In this document: piece after piece, positions 2,367 through 26,018 of the stretch
Position numbering within the stretch: position 1 is the stretch's first letter
Layout of the letters: the number at the start of each line of letters is the position of its first letter
Source of the DNA: Hallella mizrahii
Lineage (GTDB): Bacteria > Bacteroidota > Bacteroidia > Bacteroidales > Bacteroidaceae
NCBI RefSeq assembly: GCF_009695775.1
Contig: NZ_VUNG01000009.1
Coordinates: 5,181-37,180, forward strand
Direction of reading: 5' to 3'
Length of the DNA stretch: 32,000 nt
Program-made: the position numbers and the translations under genes
The notes under the pieces: generated by a model
Databases searched by the model: none
What the model was told of the DNA's origin: nothing
The model's input: only the letters and a program-made list of their open reading frames with translations

Positions 2367-3818
2367 ATGTTTAGCAAGAATTCTATTTGGAAAAGCTTAT
2401 GCATAGTTGCTTTAGCGGCAACTTTCAGTGCATGTAACAGCAGTGACGCCCCTCTCTCACCAGAGTTCACAACCATCTCATCTTCCGTCCAAGCCGACAG
2501 TATTTCCTCAACAAGTTCCTCTCTTCTTTTTACAAATGGGAGCCCAGACATCAATGGAAAGGAGATTGGAAATGGCAGTAAGGAAATGACCTTCCGTGGC
2601 ACCCAAACTATTAATAGTGGTGTGTACGAGCTTAAAGGCATTATACGTATTGCCAAAGGGGCTAAAGTAAAGATCGAGGCAGGGGCTACTATTAAATGCG
2701 ACACCGAGAGCCCATCCGGCCTTATCGTTGAGAATGGTGGAACACTAGTAGCAGAAGGAAACGCACAGGCTCCAATCGTATTCACATCTTCTAAAGAAAC
2801 AAAAGATCGTCAACCAGGAGATTGGATAGGCCTCATTATATGTGGAAATGCAAGGAACAACCTTAAGTCGGCAGCCACAGATAAAGTCAATTTATCATAT
2901 GGGGGTGACGACGATCTGTCTGGCACGGGATTGCTTAGATATATTAGAATCGAATATGCTGGTCGAAAACTTTACGACGATCTGACACCAAGCGGACTGC
3001 TATTCGCCTCAACGGGAAAGGGCTTACAAGTTGACCATGTAGAAGTCTCAAATTCAGGAGGCGATTCTTTTAATTGGATAGGAGGTGATACAGATTGCAA
3101 ATACATCGTATCAGACCAATGTGAGCAGAATGACTTCAACGTTAGCAACGGTTATAGAGGCAACGTACAATTTGGAATATCAATCAGAGATTTGTCGACT
3201 TGCAAAGCTAATGGAAACGGTATTGAAAGTATGAATGCCGAAAGCGGGTTGCTTACAGACCCGACAACACAAGCAACATTCTCTAATATGACATTTATCA
3301 ATACATCGAATGAGACTGTAAATCTTAGCAAACAATCATTTCATTCAGCAATCTATGTAAGTAGAAGCGCATGTGTCAACTGTTACAATTCGATCTTCAT
3401 TGGATGGCCTGTCGGAGTAACTATAGATAACTATCAAAGCCTATCTAGAATGTTAGCAAAGGAAGGAAAGATGAATATCAGTAACAACACCTTCGTTAAC
3501 GTTAACACGTTGGGGTCAGATGCACAAGGTGTCATAGAAGATGTCAGAGTGGATAAGTTCACAAATGAGAATTCTCTCAAGACTAAAGGGCAGAGAAGTT
3601 TCACGAGCTGCTGGCTCAGAGACAAAGGGGAAAACAAGCAATATCTAAGTGAAGAAGAACTTAAGTTTCAAGTCCGCATAGAACCTACACTTCAAAGTCC
3701 AACAAACGAAGCAGCATCCTTTGAAGAACTCGACAATTGGTTTACAAGAGTTACCTATATCGGTGCTTTAAACACCAATGCACAATGGATAAATTTCTGG
3801 ACGCATTTTAGTTACTAA
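2367..3818 (+). CDS. Conserved uncharacterised lipoprotein, predicted parallel beta-helix-like fold
   Basis: 483 aa. Lipobox LAATFSAC at the N-terminus. It has the conserved blocks of a Bacteroidota/Leptospira lipoprotein family (GATIKCD...LIVENGGTLVAEGNAQAPIVFTS...PGDWIGLIICGNA...YGGDDD...LRYIRIEYAG...GGDSFNWIGG...NGYRGNVQFGISIRD...NGIES). Function unknown. Confidence 0.75.
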   Translation: MFSKNSIWKSLCIVALAATFSACNSSDAPLSPEFTTISSSVQADSISSTSSSLLFTNGSPDINGKEIGNGSKEMTFRGTQTINSGVYELKGIIRIAKGAKVKIEAGATIKCDTESPSGLIVENGGTLVAEGNAQAPIVFTSSKETKDRQPGDWIGLIICGNARNNLKSAATDKVNLSYGGDDDLSGTGLLRYIRIEYAGRKLYDDLTPSGLLFASTGKGLQVDHVEVSNSGGDSFNWIGGDTDCKYIVSDQCEQNDFNVSNGYRGNVQFGISIRDLSTCKANGNGIESMNAESGLLTDPTTQATFSNMTFINTSNETVNLSKQSFHSAIYVSRSACVNCYNSIFIGWPVGVTIDNYQSLSRMLAKEGKMNISNNTFVNVNTLGSDAQGVIEDVRVDKFTNENSLKTKGQRSFTSCWLRDKGENKQYLSEEELKFQVRIEPTLQSPTNEAASFEELDNWFTRVTYIGALNTNAQWINFWTHFSY

Positions 3819-5282: not shown

Positions 5283-6239
5283 TTAATAAGTGACAACAGC
5301 TGGATCAGAAACATTGGTAGTTGCATTGACTTTCACACCAAGCTTCTTGCAAGTCCAGTCAACCTTACCCTCTGGTACATCGCGCGTATACTCGATGATA
5401 CAGTTAGGATCCTGCTCCCAATATTTCTTCGCAGTCATATTCTTCATATCCTTGTTAGGTTTGGTATCATCAGGATTAAGCATAAGTTTCAAACCAACAG
5501 AGGTATTCATCATCTCCATATCACCACGACTATTACCAGCAGCAAAGAGAGGACGAGTCTTTACGAATGTATAGACACACTCTGCCTTACCATTGTCCTG
5601 AGGAGAAGGGAAGGTAATTTGGTCGGTGATCTTACCATCGCTGCTGACAGGAGACTTCACACCAATTACATGATCCTCTTGGAATCCTAATTCCTGCACA
5701 CAGAAACGCTGATAAAGAAGTTCTGGGGAAGCAGAGATCACCCATGTCTCAAATCCAAAGTTACGAAGGTTTGCTAACAAAGCCTTCATCTGAGGGTAGA
5801 ACTTGTTCTGATACTTCTCATGGAAGCAATCATCACCAATACGCTGAGCCTCCTCCGGCGTCAGCCCCGAAAGGAACTTCACACGATCACGCTCACGGCT
5901 AATGGCATCCTCGTTGATCATCTTCTTCACCAAGGCATACTTCTCCTGAGAGACCTTGTCGGTCTTTCCCTTATAGTTCTTCTCTGCATAATCGTAGAGA
6001 GACTCCTCTGCCAAGTAGTAAGGAACCTGACCAAGAAGCGTACCGTCGCAGTCAAAGACTGCTACCTTACGAATGTTCATCGGGATCGTAGAGATCATGA
6101 AGTTCTCAAGCTTTGCATTCGTGGCATCGCTCCATCCCTGAATCTTCTGATACTTGTAGGTCTGAGCCATTGTGGCCAAAACACCTACGAAAAGCAGCAT
6201 ACACAATGCTGACGCAATTCGCTTAACAGAATTAATCAT
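5283..6239 (-). CDS. Secreted HAD-superfamily phosphatase (SerB/subfamily IB-like)
   Basis: 318 aa. N-terminal signal peptide (ALCMLLFVGVLATMAQ). HAD motif I VAVFDCDGTLL (DxDGT), motif II VISASP, motif IV-like GNSRGDMEMM. Confidence 0.8.
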   Translation of the reverse strand: MINSVKRIASALCMLLFVGVLATMAQTYKYQKIQGWSDATNAKLENFMISTIPMNIRKVAVFDCDGTLLGQVPYYLAEESLYDYAEKNYKGKTDKVSQEKYALVKKMINEDAISRERDRVKFLSGLTPEEAQRIGDDCFHEKYQNKFYPQMKALLANLRNFGFETWVISASPELLYQRFCVQELGFQEDHVIGVKSPVSSDGKITDQITFPSPQDNGKAECVYTFVKTRPLFAAGNSRGDMEMMNTSVGLKLMLNPDDTKPNKDMKNMTAKKYWEQDPNCIIEYTRDVPEGKVDWTCKKLGVKVNATTNVSDPAVVTY

Positions 6240-6315
6240 AATAAAGATGTTTAAAGTTAATAATGTGTTGTTTAGTTATGAATATCAAATACCCAAAAAT
6301 ATCAATATGCCAACA

Positions 6316-7047
6316 TCAGAATGATGTAATCCAGACTCCCAGTAAGCCTGCTAAAGCACCACCTGCCAATGGACCGAGGATTGGAACCCAACTATAGCTC
6401 CAACCACTGTCTCTTTTACCCTTTATAGGTAACAAGGCATGCGCAATACGCGGTCCGAGATCACGTGCAGGATTCATTGCATAACCAGTAACGCCACCAA
6501 GAGACATACCTATAGAAACAATAACCATAGTAATTGGCCACGCACTGTTTCCACCCAAACCGACTACACCTGTGTAAGAGCTAATGCAAACGATAAGCAA
6601 CAAAAGGATGAATGCACAGATAAACTCCTGCAAGAAGTTCAATGGCTTGTTCTCTATCGCAGGCATTGTACAGAAGATAGTCAGTTTTCCTTCAGGATCA
6701 TCTGTAGCATCAAAATGATCCTTATACATTAACCATACAAGAACGGCTCCCAAAAAGGCACCAAGCATTTGGGCTATAATATATGGTATTACATTCGACC
6801 ATGGGAACATACCAGCACAAGCTAAGCCTACACTAACGGCGGGGTTGAGATGCGCACCCGAATTATGTGCAATAAACACACCTGCCATCACAGCAAGTCC
6901 CCATCCCAAGGTAATGACGACCCAACCACCGCCTTTACCTTTACTCTTGTTCAAACCCATACAGGCACATACTCCATCTCCTAGGAGAATCATTACTAAT
7001 GTTCCAAGAAACTCCAGGATACAATTGTGAAACAAGACAGCATCCAT
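6316..7047 (-). CDS. glpF: Glycerol uptake facilitator (MIP/aquaglyceroporin)
   Basis: 243 aa with six hydrophobic segments and two NPA boxes (AHLNPAVSVG, YAMNPARDLGPR). Located directly downstream of glpK. Confidence 0.9.
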   Translation of the reverse strand: MDAVLFHNCILEFLGTLVMILLGDGVCACMGLNKSKGKGGGWVVITLGWGLAVMAGVFIAHNSGAHLNPAVSVGLACAGMFPWSNVIPYIIAQMLGAFLGAVLVWLMYKDHFDATDDPEGKLTIFCTMPAIENKPLNFLQEFICAFILLLLIVCISSYTGVVGLGGNSAWPITMVIVSIGMSLGGVTGYAMNPARDLGPRIAHALLPIKGKRDSGWSYSWVPILGPLAGGALAGLLGVWITSF

Positions 7048-23274: not shown

Positions 23275-23718
23275 ATGAGTTACACACAACTGATGTACCA
23301 CATCGTCATCGGTACAAGAAGTCACAGACCTGTTATTGACCAAAACTACGAACGGGAGCTATACAGTTATATACTTTCGTTCACAAAAAACAAGAACGGC
23401 CACCTATATAGAGTAGGTGGCATGCCTAATCACGTCCATCTCTTAGTGGGTCTACCTTCCACTTTGACAGTTGCAGATTTCGTTCGCATGCTGAAGATCT
23501 CTACGAATAACTTCATGAAGGAACATCAACCTGAGTTCCCGATGTTCGAAGGATGGCGCAGCGAATACTTTGCTGCCACATGTTCACTTCGTGAGAAAGA
23601 TAAGATCATCGAATATATCAAGAACCAGAAAACGCATCATGCGAAGGTCTGCTTCAAGGATGAGCTAAAGCAGCTACTGGAAGAGTACGGCATCTCGTAC
23701 AACGAAGATTACCTATAA
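23275..23718 (+). mobile_element. Y1 HUH tyrosine transposase of the IS200/IS605 TnpA superfamily, RAYT-like (no TnpB partner in the window)
   Basis: 147 aa. N-terminal YHIV block (LMYHIVIGTRSHRPVI), HUH motif PNHVHLLV (H53-V-H55), and the catalytic Tyr helix IIEYIKNQKTHH (Y114). The ORF is intact. It stands alone as a single gene and is followed 46 nt later by a palindrome array. Confidence 0.85.
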
Positions 23719-23764
23719 CTTCCACGCGAGACATTTTCAAGGTCATGGCCCTGCGACTCATCTC

Positions 23765-24311
23765 TACACCGAGTCGCTCACTCGTAAGGATTTCCGCTAC
23801 GCTCCAGTCCTTACTCGTTCGACGACTCGGTTCTTTTCATCGTGTGACCTTTTCAAGATCATTATACACACAACAACCAAGTATGTTGCTACCAAGTTCC
23901 TTGCGGGAGTACTAAAAGAGCACTGGGCAACTATCAAACCAAAAGCAAAGTGCTTTGATGTGACTCATGTCCCTGAAAGGGACACACTCTTAATGACCCC
24001 AAGTCGTCGAGCAAGTAAGGGCCGAAGCGAAGCGGAGGTCCTTACTTGCTCGACGACTTGGGGTAGAGTCGGTGGCAATGCAATGACCTCGGAGAGGTCT
24101 CACGTGGACGTATTACAAAGCCTTGATAACAAGTTACTTCACCCGTCCACGTGAGTCCTCTTCGAGGACATCTTCCCGCACACGAACTACCCCAGGTCGC
24201 TCACTTTTGTGATGCTTCGCCATCACAAAAGCTCGACGACCTGGGGTCAATCATAGTGTGTCCCTTTCAGGGACATTATACGCTGAGAGCTTAATCACCC
24301 ACTCTTATGAA
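23765..24311. repeat. Array unit 1
   Basis: See the array entry. Contains H1 (23768-23831), a 135-nt less-structured spacer, the dyad module (23967-24276) and a 35-nt tail. Confidence 0.9.
23967..24276. repeat. 310-bp dyad-symmetric hairpin module of unit 1, bounded by perfect 22-nt inverted repeats
   Basis: IR-L atgtccctgaaagggacacact (23967-23988) is the exact reverse complement of IR-R agtgtgtccctttcagggacat (24255-24276). Each 22-mer is itself a hairpin (gtccct/agggac). Internal hairpins are H2 23997-24063 (24-bp stem), H3 24085-24099, H4 24099-24155 (12-bp stem), H5 24155-24169 and H6 24190-24246. Confidence 0.9.
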
Positions 24312-24858
24312 TACACCGAGTCGCTCACTCGTAAGGATTTCCACTACGCTCCAGTCTTTACTCGTTCGACGACTCGGTGCTTTTCATCGTGTGACCTTTT
24401 CAAGATCATTATACACACAACAACCAAGTATGTTGCTACCAAATTACTTGCGGGACTACTAAAAGAGCACTGGGCAACTATCAAACCAAAAGCAAAGTGC
24501 TTTGATGTGACTCATGTCCCTGAAAGGGACACACTCTTAATGACCCCAAGTCGCCGAGCAAGTAAGGGCCGAAGCGAAGCGGAGGTCCTTACTTGCTCGA
24601 CGACTTGGGGTAGAGTCGGTGGCAATGCAATGACCTCGGAGAGGTCTCACGTGGACGTATTACAAAGCCTTGATAACAAGTTACTTCACCCGTCCACGTG
24701 AGTCCTCTTCGAGGACATCTTCCCGCACACGAACTACCCCAGGTCGCTCACTTTTGTGATGCTTCGCCATCACAAAAGCTCGACGACCTGGGGTCAATCA
24801 TAGTGTGTCCCTTTCAGGGACATTATACGCTGAGGGTTTAATCACCCTCTCTTATGAA
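24312..24858. repeat. Array unit 2
   Basis: Dyad module at 24514-24823. The inverted 22-mers were verified at 24514-24535 and 24802-24823. Confidence 0.9.
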
Positions 24859-25404
24859 TACACCGAGTCGCTCACTCGTAAGGATTTCCGCTACGCTCCA
24901 GTCCTTGCTCGTTCGACGACTCGGTTCTTTTCATCGTGTGACCTTTTCAAGATCATTATACACACAACAACCAAGTATGTTGCTACCAAGTTCCTTGCGG
25001 GACTACTAAAAGAGCACTGGGCAACTATCAAACCAAAAGCAAAGTGCTTTGATGTGACTCATGTCCCTGAAAGGGACACACTCTTAATGACCCCAAGTCG
25101 TCGAGCAAGTAAGGGCCGAAGCGAAGCGGAGGTCCTTACTTGCAAGCGACTTGGGGTAGAGTCGGTGGCGAAGCAATGACCTCGGAGAGGTCTCACGTGG
25201 ACGTATTACAAAGCCTTGATAACAAATCACTTCACGCGTCCACGTGAGTCCTCTTCGAGGACATCTTCCCGCACACGAACTACCCCAGGTCGCCCGCTTT
25301 TGTGATGCTTCGCCATCACAAAAGCTCGACGACCTGGGGTCAATCATAGTGTGTCCCTTTCAGGGACATTATACGCTGAGAGCTTAATCACCCACTCTTA
25401 TGAA
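24859..25404. repeat. Array unit 3 (1-nt shorter; right arm of hairpin H2 degraded)
   Basis: Dyad module at 25061-25369. The inverted 22-mers were verified at 25061-25082 and 25348-25369. It reads cttacttgcaagcgacttgggg where units 1 and 2 read cttacttgctcgacgacttgggg. Confidence 0.9.
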
Positions 25405-25535
25405 GTAACAACCATTTTTTCCGACAAAAACACGTCCGCAAGAAGTTGCAATCTAGAGAAGCGGAAAACGGAGGAAGAAGGATAAAACTACTATTTCATC
25501 GATTTTTCTCGGTCAAAAGCCTAAGATGATGCTAA

Positions 25536-25593
25536 GAAAACGGTACTTTGATGGAAAATTCTCTAGAGAATTTTCCATCAAAGTACCGTTTTC
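25536..25593. repeat. Perfect 58-bp palindrome (29-nt arms, zero spacer)
   Basis: gaaaacggtactttgatggaaaattctct|agagaattttccatcaaagtaccgttttc, checked base by base. A further direct copy of caaagtacc lies at 25601-25609, 22 nt after the copy at 25579-25587. Confidence 0.95.
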
Positions 25594-26018
25594 ACACGGT
25601 CAAAGTACCTTTTTGATCACTAAAAACGGGCGTTTTGGCGAAGTAAACAGCTAATTTTGACAAGTAAAAAAGTGGATTATCGAAGTAAAATCACATAAAT
25701 CGCTAATATACAAGCAATTATGAAAAAATCTCCATTTTGGGCTTCTTTTCGGCCAACACCCATGTTGCTTCTGAAAATCGTCGAAAAATTGGCCGAAAAA
25801 TGTCAGTTTACACGACAAAATAAAACAAGGGGGACAAGAATACAAAAATAGGCAGATGCAGTAACGAACGCTCCTTAAAGGATGCTCCATTACCACATCT
25901 GCCTATTCTGCGACAATATGTGTTTACTATGTTACTCTGTCTTATGACAAGGCGTCGCTCTGTATGCCTACTATGCAATCTGTCTTATAACGAGCCGAGA
26001 CATTGACTTTTTACTCTG

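Follow-up and report, generated by a model that had tools for sequence, protein, structure and literature searches.

A Y1 transposase-like gene of Hallella mizrahii and its probable three-hairpin repeat partners

Introduction

The 32,000-nt stretch of Hallella mizrahii contig NZ_VUNG01000009.1 analysed here (the window) contains an intact gene for a Y1 (HUH) transposase-like protein of the kind that acts on single-stranded DNA (ssDNA), followed by a tandem array of three hairpin-packed units. The locus is probably a system of a Prevotella-like bacterium that resembles the REPtrons and bacterial interspersed mosaic elements (BIMEs) of Escherichia coli, and would consist of the Y1 enzyme, a three-hairpin partner module and the array. 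The view that the hairpin modules are putative partner DNA of the Y1 enzyme, in the sense established for repetitive extragenic palindromes (REPs) and REP-associated tyrosine transposases (RAYTs), is supported by the bracketing of orthologous Y1 genes with the same modules and by the dispersal of these modules elsewhere. In the array, which is neither a gene nor a mobile unit, a module doublet has been amplified locally together with pieces of a bracketing arm and of the flank, to a degree that varies between strains.

REPs, BIMEs and REP doublets forming hairpins (REPINs) are the classic case of a transposase kept by its host alongside a population of hairpin repeats. To our knowledge, such systems have so far been tied to class-2 Y1 enzymes, mostly in Proteobacteria. 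What is new here is such a partnership in this branch of Y1 enzymes and in this phylum, and a three-hairpin partner with conserved G-N-A loops.

The Y1 gene and its protein

23275-23718, + strand: Y1 (HUH) ssDNA transposase-like gene, 147 aa, IS200-like 'subclass 1.2'

The open reading frame (ORF) is matched over its whole length by Pfam Y1_Tnp (PF01797) with E=9e-23 and 81 bits, against a cut-off of 23. Both catalytic motifs that a first-pass annotation had read from this 147-aa ORF are present, namely the HUH motif H53-V54-H55 and the tyrosine helix Y114-I-K-N-Q118. In an alignment of the window protein with 15 homologues, Y114, Q118, H121 and H122 are invariant. The protein scored 65.2 bits with the NCBIfam IS200/IS605 TnpA model NF033573, above its cut-off of 55, and 21.7 bits with the REP_Tyr_transpos model NF047646, below its cut-off of 80. 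Its tyrosine motif is YIKNQKTHH, as opposed to the YxxxNP of RAYT/TnpAREP. The AlphaFold2 model (predicted local distance difference test score, 90.6) has the Y1 fold. When this model was searched with Foldseek, the top 29 matches were ISDra2, IS608, IS200 and related Y1 TnpA chains, with E down to 8e-9, and E. coli TnpAREP (4er8) was a weaker fold match (E 5e-5). A sequence search of the PDB ranked the structures in the same way, with IS608/ISDra2 ahead of TnpAREP.

The signature Y---Q--HH, the lengths of 147-154 aa and the conserved tail (residues 122-147) place the protein and its homologues in subclass 1.2, with the window HUH motif reading NHVH where the published consensus of the subclass is DH[IV]H. 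Membership in the class-2 RAYT/TnpAREP family was ruled out by the RAYT model score and by the YIKNQ..HH motif. The earlier suggestion of a domesticated RAYT thus survives in part: a domesticated-type Y1 gene with hairpin partners is borne out by orthologue bracketing and by dispersal, but the family name is not. Taken together, these features fit a functional HUH/Y1 ssDNA endonuclease-ligase of IS200-like subclass 1.2.

The window holds one copy of the gene. In relatives of 91-97% identity the Y1 gene occupies the same locus, and it is missing there in one 90% relative (L028). Comparison with the same locus of L037 (91% identical) gave a synonymous divergence (dS) of 0.59 and a ratio of nonsynonymous to synonymous divergence (dN/dS) of 0.04, so that the gene has long been kept at this locus under selection. 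The window Y1 gene is intact and under strong purifying selection. As had been noted at first pass, it has no TnpB/IscB partner: neither TnpB/IscB nor an integrase was found in the window, and the neighbours are housekeeping genes. A blastn search of plasmid and phage collections returned no match.

Anatomy of the hairpin module

Comparison of related contigs defined a module of ~145 nt, conserved among Prevotella contigs and composed of a small hairpin (a), a big bulged hairpin and a second small hairpin (b). Hairpin a has a 7-bp stem and a 3-nt loop, reads TGTCCCT-GAA-AGGGACA in the window and TGACCCC-GGA-GGGGTCA in other Prevotella, and is followed by CAC. The big hairpin is 55-70 nt long and bulged; its feet are conserved (ACCCCAGGTCGTCG...CGAGCGACCTGGGGT) and its interior varies, and it is followed by a variable linker of ~20 nt that starts with AG in many copies. 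Hairpin b reads GACCTC-GGA-GAGGTC and is followed by TCACGTGGAC. Among 23 module copies, 18 of the 37 predicted stem pairs keep pairing through two-sided (compensatory) changes. The modules of the window and their parts are as follows.

23719-23862, - strand: M1, decayed inverted module next to the stop codon, located by BLAST of the module against the window
23719-23750, - strand: degenerate b hairpin of M1, outside the array and abutting the Y1 stop codon
23765-23832, - strand: H1, 68-nt bulged hairpin located by folding; big hairpin of M1 and first element of the units, with copies in units 2 and 3 at 24312-24379 and 24859-24926
23842-23861, - strand: degenerate a hairpin of M1
23931-24282: REPIN-like doublet, the part that occurs at other loci: leader hairpin AAAGCAAAGTGCTTT, M2, spacer and M3
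23967-24110, + strand: M2, intact module (copies at +547 and +1094); hairpin a at 23967-23988, big hairpin H2 at 23996-24064, hairpin b with CACGTGGAC at 24083-24110
24111-24143: 33-nt spacer between the inverted modules of the doublet (arms 24083-24110 and 24144-24171)
24144-24276, - strand: M3, intact module (copies at +547 and +1093); b-type hairpin at 24144-24171, big hairpin H4 at 24189-24247, hairpin a at 24255-24276
24277-24311: tail, locus-specific flank carried in each unit, ending ...CTTATGAA; the flank GTAACAACC lies at 25405

No recognisable ends had been seen around the gene at first pass, a statement that M1 qualifies, as it is a decayed inverted copy of the module that brackets the orthologues. 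On the minus strand, 113 columns align with the module at 72.8% identity; M1 could be aligned with 15 modules, and its geometry is shared with the orthologue loci L005, L006, L019, L020 and L043. M2, the spacer and M3 together form a near-palindrome of ~310 nt, an analogue of a REPIN. A single tail stands beside the same flank in L037, in OGJK01000016 and in L028, a contig without Y1 gene or array.

The loops and stems differ between the two strands. On the module + strand, G-N-A loops are found in 21 of 23 a hairpins and 22 of 23 b hairpins, and the big hairpins carry CGAAG in 17/23 copies and CTTCG in 0/23. With DNA folding parameters, the + strand was found to be more stable than its complement in all three modules tested (3/3). 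Triloops of the type d(GNA) and GCGAAGC mini-hairpins are exceptionally stable in DNA (PMC3201870, PMC13037366). The asymmetry in G-N-A and CGAAG, with the stability of the + strand, points to a strand-specific ssDNA form, as would suit a Y1 enzyme, and speaks against an RNA gene.

Linkage of the enzyme to the hairpins

Orthologues 73-77% identical to the window protein were found in metagenome contigs (L005, L006 and L043) and at two loci (L019 and L020) of the metagenome-assembled genome (MAG) UMGS580, all from other Prevotella. At each of these five loci, the Y1 gene is bracketed on both sides by full inverted modules, with arms of 45-104 nt that are 88-98% complementary and have the b end towards the gene. 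The co-occurrence of the hairpins with Y1 orthologues, which the first-pass annotation had proposed to check, is seen at these loci. The bracketing also relates the dispersed doublet to the gene: the doublet corresponds to the bracketed unit with a short spacer replacing the gene. In the closely related contigs L005 (5300-7130) and L006 (5000-7900), the module-Y1-module segment is oriented oppositely with respect to the neighbouring ROK gene, which is the expectation from recombination between inverted arms.

Subclass-1.2 homologues at 45-54% identity have flanks unrelated to those of the window, yet they are bracketed by inverted repeats. Most of these homologues have a short GC-rich GGA/GAA-loop hairpin upstream on the coding strand and its complement downstream. 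The bracketing elements of individual loci are as follows.

L040: hairpin GCATCTC-GGA-GAGATGC
L046/L047: hairpin GCATGCC-GGA-GGCATGC
L045: hairpin GCCTC-GGA-GAGGC
L044: hairpin CTCTC-GAA-GAGAG
L038: 28-nt inverted repeat; AT-rich hairpin with a TCAG-type loop

When inverted repeats bracketing a gene within 130 nt were scored, 10 of 13 Y1 loci reached 13-42, and 75 control ORFs, namely long ORFs from the same loci, reached at most 12. The exceptions are the window and L037, with a decayed downstream arm only, and the homologue P0008, with a downstream doublet only. P0008 is a 50%-identical subclass-1.2 homologue that holds a fixed position in polysaccharide-biosynthesis clusters on at least 24 contigs; in L007-L013 the gene lies at 6001-6453 (3868-4320 in L012), and the upstream glycosyltransferase genes vary.

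Tandem repeats lie right beside the Y1 gene in L005, L006, L038 and L045, with periods of 31, 33-35, 54, 63-64 and 194-200 nt. Just downstream of the distant subclass-1.2 Y1 gene of L038, at 3518-3756, a hairpin-bearing tandem array has a 54-nt period and ~5 copies; a similar one in L045, at 2950-3146, has a 63-64-nt period and 3-4 copies. These short arrays are a small-scale counterpart of the 547-bp array of the window.

The modules are extragenic and dispersed, and occur as singlets and as inverted doublets. A scan of 185,579 representative genomes for the exact 25-nt b motif returned only two of them, related Prevotella MAGs and neither of them the window's own species. In the Prevotella sp. 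UMGS580 MAG, 8 stretches spread over 7 contigs carry the motif, with 10 matches in all that include the two pairs around the Y1 genes; this genome carries two diverged Y1 genes, ~75% identical and saturated at synonymous sites. In UMGS868 the motif was found once (L022). The window's own a motif was found in 15 metagenome stretches, some of which are the same locus in relatives and others at least three unrelated loci. Doublets ~82% identical to that of the window stand at unrelated loci (L023/L026/L027/L031), and partial doublets were found in L024/L025/L032 and L029. The dispersal that had been proposed as a check is seen, with the module motifs intergenic and scattered both in UMGS580 and among metagenome contigs. 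A 1.5-kb metagenome contig (L033, 100-300) has three a-type hairpins (GTCCCTGAAAGGGAC and its complement) in another arrangement and without big hairpins, and these may be another member of the repeat family.

The three-unit array

23765-24311, no strand: tandem unit 1, 547 bp (repeat search)
24312-24858, no strand: tandem unit 2, 547 bp (repeat search)
24859-25404, no strand: tandem unit 3, 546 bp (repeat search)

The array starts at 23765, 46 nt past the Y1 stop codon, and consists of three units arranged head to tail, as had been described at first pass. The third unit is 1 bp shorter than the other two, and the identity of ~98% given there is a little too high, the pairwise values being 98.2, 97.8 and 96.3%. 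The array escapes Tandem Repeats Finder, which handles periods only up to 500, and a general repeat finder was used instead. Each unit holds, in order, the M1 part (-), ~100 nt that is less structured, M2 (+), the 33-nt spacer, M3 (-) and the 35-nt tail. Thus, as in BIME/REP clusters, modules of alternating orientation (M1 -, M2 +, M3 -) recur within each unit, and the three tandem units are extragenic.

The description of the units as hairpin-packed was also sustained. RNA folding of one unit gave -253 (+ strand) and -269 (- strand) kcal/mol, compared with -149 and -167 for shuffled sequences, that is, ~100 kcal/mol better than shuffled, with z ~ -14.7 on both strands. The 22-mer ATGTCCCTGAAAGGGACACACT occurs 6 times where 0 occurrences are expected. 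The array is not an artefact of assembly: the units are distinguishable, differing by 2-4%, and the metagenome assemblies L003, L030 and L034, which are independent of one another, all contain the junction between units. A known RNA family was likewise looked for: Rfam 15 returned 0 matches at gathering score for the whole window, and for the array region at E up to 10 it returned only generic microRNA (miRNA)-hairpin noise. The array ORFs (147 aa and 86 aa) match no Pfam family and run through hairpins, and were rejected as spurious. An integron-like reading, with the hairpins as recombination sites of an array, was also rejected, in view of the lack of an integrase in the window, the housekeeping neighbours and the near-identity of the units.

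History of the locus

The same locus in relatives was found in the following states, with percentages giving identity to the window.

L002, 98%: one unit; short-read assembly, possibly collapsed
L003, L030 and L034, 96-98%: more than one unit
OGJK01000016 (177 kb; L035), 95%: Y1 gene and a single unit without H1
L037, 91%: Y1 gene, doublet and a partial second copy
L028, 90%: no Y1 gene; two-gene cassette with a helix-turn-helix (HTH) protein; a single M3 module and tail, same flank

The number of units thus differs between strains, from 1 to 3. Units within the window diverge from one another as much as they do from the units of other strains, which indicates that the amplification is old and has not been homogenised. 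H1 behaves as a strain indel, a discrete block of ~68 nt that is missing in OGJK01000016 (L035) and L037. The ends of this indel are uncertain by several nt because the flanks have diverged, and MAFFT and manual alignment disagree on the placement of the gap.

On the minus strand, each unit ends in ...CGACTCGGTG-TA, 2 nt outside the H1 foot, and is joined there to TTCATAAG..., which on the same strand of the right flank comes after GTTAC; the junction has no microhomology. L037 carries an independent partial duplication; one of its breakpoints falls at the corresponding position in another module (after GGGGTA, or 1 nt off), and the other is at most 4 nt from the flank breakpoint of the window. 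A single cleavage rule, 'after GTA', was tried and rejected, since the L037 junction has one extra A and fails to fit exactly.

At L028 10074-10836, the Y1 gene is replaced by an opposite-strand two-gene cassette, followed by a single hairpin module. Of its two proteins, one (94 aa) is of the HTH_3 (XRE) type and the other (161 aa) matches no Pfam family; the cassette looks toxin-antitoxin-like. The intergenic site occupied by Y1 or by this cassette seems to be a hot spot for changes in gene content. In L004 (745-935), a unitig with the identical Y1 gene, the sequence departs from that of the window at 23740, within the decayed b hairpin, and continues into unrelated coding DNA. The cause would be a chimeric assembly at the repeat or a true rearrangement at the hairpin. 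Of the four contigs found to encode the identical Y1 protein, three end within ~200 nt past the gene or inside the array. Such clusters break short-read Prevotella assemblies.

Comparison with known systems

Subclass 1.2 has been described as IS200-related, without the properties of insertion sequences (ISs), with 'generally no' terminal secondary structures and 'no' REP (Quentin et al., 2018; PMC6006769), and is reported from Bacteroidetes/Cyanobacteria (PMC6006769). The proteins considered here agree with that description in the Y---Q--HH motif, the length of ~148 aa, the specific C-terminal tail, the low copy number and the occurrence in Bacteroidetes (PMC6006769). They differ from it in that 10/13 loci have bracketing inverted hairpin repeats. 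A subclass published without repeats here shows a REP-type organisation, which suggests that the partnership between enzyme and repeats arose more than once.

The closest counterpart is the E. coli REPtron/BIME system (Ton-Hoang et al., 2012; PMC3333891). Shared features are a single-copy Y1 gene bracketed by inverted hairpin repeats, mosaic clusters of alternating orientation, tandem reiteration both beside the gene and elsewhere, and the same proposed chemistry, in which ssDNA would be cut near a hairpin and then transferred to another strand. In contrast to that system, the window enzyme is of class 1 (subclass 1.2) and not class 2, its hairpins lack the 5' GTAG, the module is a 145-nt three-hairpin structure compared with the 35-nt REP, the period is 547 bp compared with ~100 bp, the copies seen number about ten per genome compared with hundreds, and the phylum is Bacteroidota. 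REP/BIME clusters beside tnpAREP, the 'REPtrons', were already described (PMC3333891), and REP clusters are known to include dimers tandemly reiterated with flanking DNA (PMC3733652, 2013). The composition of the window array, a dimer and flanking DNA repeated head to tail, is identical to that of the latter, although those clusters are built from GTAG- or CGTC-tagged single hairpins and are mostly from Proteobacteria. The first-pass proposal of an undescribed architecture was accordingly overstated.

Similarity to REPIN-RAYT systems (Bertels and Rainey, 2011, PMC3116915; Bertels et al., 2017, PMC5581495) lies in the dispersed unit, an inverted pair with a short spacer that forms a long hairpin, in the vertically kept enzyme gene under purifying selection, and in the diverged paralogues within one genome, each with its own flanks. 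The differences are that the window protein fails the RAYT model, that each half of a doublet contains three hairpins, and that the repeat population is small. The TnpA proteins of IS200/IS605 (IS608, ISDra2), considered with the palindrome-associated transposable elements (PATEs), are the best sequence and fold matches, and share HUH and tyrosine catalysis, recognition of ssDNA hairpins and rearrangement without target duplication. Unlike in that family, the ends at the orthologue loci are long inverted repeats rather than distinct one-strand left and right ends, and the system of the window has no near-identical copies, no TnpB and a gene that is stable at one locus.

Proposed mechanism and rival explanations

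We infer that the Y1 enzyme was the maker of the array. The region would become single-stranded at the replication fork, and the enzyme would then bind the small hairpins; candidate recognition elements are the small hairpins with a GGA/GAA loop, which in the module family of the window have CAC after them. The enzyme would cut a few nt outside a hairpin foot, with the foot of the big hairpin as the candidate cleavage site, form a 5'-phosphotyrosine link, and join the free 3'-OH to another cut site. Joining of the H1-foot site (minus strand ...CTCGGTGTA^) to the right-flank site (GTTAC^TTCATAAG) would produce the first duplication. The same strand transfer may also move modules and doublets, and for later gains and losses of copies ordinary homologous recombination between units would suffice. 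In vitro, TnpAREP shows little sequence specificity in cutting ssDNA near REPs, and its strand transfer builds tandem BIMEs (PMC3333891); the array mechanism proposed here is the model put forward there for BIME amplification by TnpAREP.

Several points weigh against the REPtron-like interpretation. What ties the enzyme to the hairpins is their adjacency, co-variation and co-occurrence in sequence data. The window lineage lacks an upstream arm and the arm beside its gene is decayed, and the P0008 lineage also has no upstream arm. One further match of the b motif stands in UMGS868. The copy number is low, ~10 exact matches per genome, counted in one incomplete MAG, and not hundreds. The two duplications do not follow one simple cleavage rule, and the argument from breakpoints consists of these two duplications and one indel with ends uncertain by several nt. 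Finally, the 2-4% divergence of the units means that the amplification is old and that its mechanism cannot be read directly.

The main rival accepts the modules as Y1 partners and attributes the array to host processes, that is, to illegitimate recombination or to fork stalling with template switching at these very stable hairpins, followed by unequal crossing-over. Long palindromes stall replication forks and provoke rearrangements, the unit divergence and strain-variable unit number are what ordinary repeat dynamics would give, and a stalled polymerase, too, would switch template at the foot of a hairpin. This account fits poorly with a junction that lacks microhomology, with two independent duplications that share both breakpoint regions, and with arrays beside Y1 in several unrelated lineages with different hairpins; it is a serious minority possibility. 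An active IS is less likely still. On that account module-Y1-module would be an autonomous, selfish element with long inverted ends, not a domesticated gene, and the doublets would be deletion derivatives resembling miniature inverted-repeat transposable elements. The doublet is indeed the bracketed gene unit with a 33-nt spacer in place of the gene, orthologue contexts differ (peptidase genes in the window, ROK elsewhere), UMGS580 has two Y1 copies, and the gene is missing at the same locus in the 90%-identical L028. The UMGS580 copies, though, are ~75% identical with saturated synonymous sites, unlike the near-identical copies of an IS; the gene has stayed at one locus across the dS of 0.59 with a dN/dS of 0.04; the plasmid and phage collections searched held no copy; and the window lacks one arm and has the other in decayed form, all of which make an active IS unlikely.

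Two further readings are very improbable. The first-pass annotation had also raised the possibility that the 547-bp unit is a non-autonomous, PATE-like element of IS200/IS605 type inserted three times head to tail, the junction being a right-end/left-end joint. The junction is indeed precise, with neither target duplication nor microhomology, and the minus-strand sequence just ahead of the array is TTAC, the target of IS608, probably by coincidence. This idea did not hold, as the whole unit is found nowhere else and only its inner ~350 nt are dispersed, its first 100 nt belong to the Y1-adjacent module M1, and its last 35 nt are flank that is present in L028 without Y1 and array. It is equally hard to credit an RNA role, in which each unit would encode a structured RNA or the array would serve at the RNA level for termination or stabilisation, with the DNA repeats secondary. 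The extreme folding z-score would suit such a role, as would the position between convergent genes, where REPs affect mRNA stability (PMC3733652). Opposed to it are the lack of any Rfam match beyond miRNA-model noise even at E up to 10, the equal folding of both strands as RNA, the G-N-A loops of a type specially stable in DNA, the change from 1 to 3 units between close strains, and the array ORFs without a Pfam match.

Beyond the REPtron-like interpretation of this locus, a broader proposal can be put forward tentatively, with odds somewhat against it. Subclass 1.2 may represent a second, independent recruitment of Y1 enzymes, of class 1 and from the IS200 side, into a REP/REPIN-like partnership that would be widespread in Bacteroidota. 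Each lineage would co-evolve with a G-N-A-triloop hairpin of changing stem, and the enzyme would build and remodel clusters and arrays by cuts a couple of nt outside hairpin feet. If this is true, BIME-type amplification would become experimentally tractable in a gut commensal.

Locus neighbourhood

The array sits in intergenic DNA between convergent genes, among housekeeping chromosomal genes. Upstream of Y1 is an M20 peptidase gene, and downstream of the array, on the opposite strand, are genes for an EnvC-like M23 peptidase and for LolB1 (LolB1_Flavo match). This match and the relatives among Prevotella MAGs place the host in Bacteroidota. Further from Y1 are glycerol metabolism genes, a gene for an acyl-CoA ligase and one for a release factor. 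A separate long palindrome (25503-25626; core 25541-25588) lies in the interval that follows the array and precedes the EnvC-like gene; it has a perfect stem of 20 bp and a T-run, and on the minus strand it resembles a terminator. Unrelated to the Y1 modules, this palindrome is ~80% conserved in L028 and L037, and it is responsible for the miRNA-model noise in Rfam.

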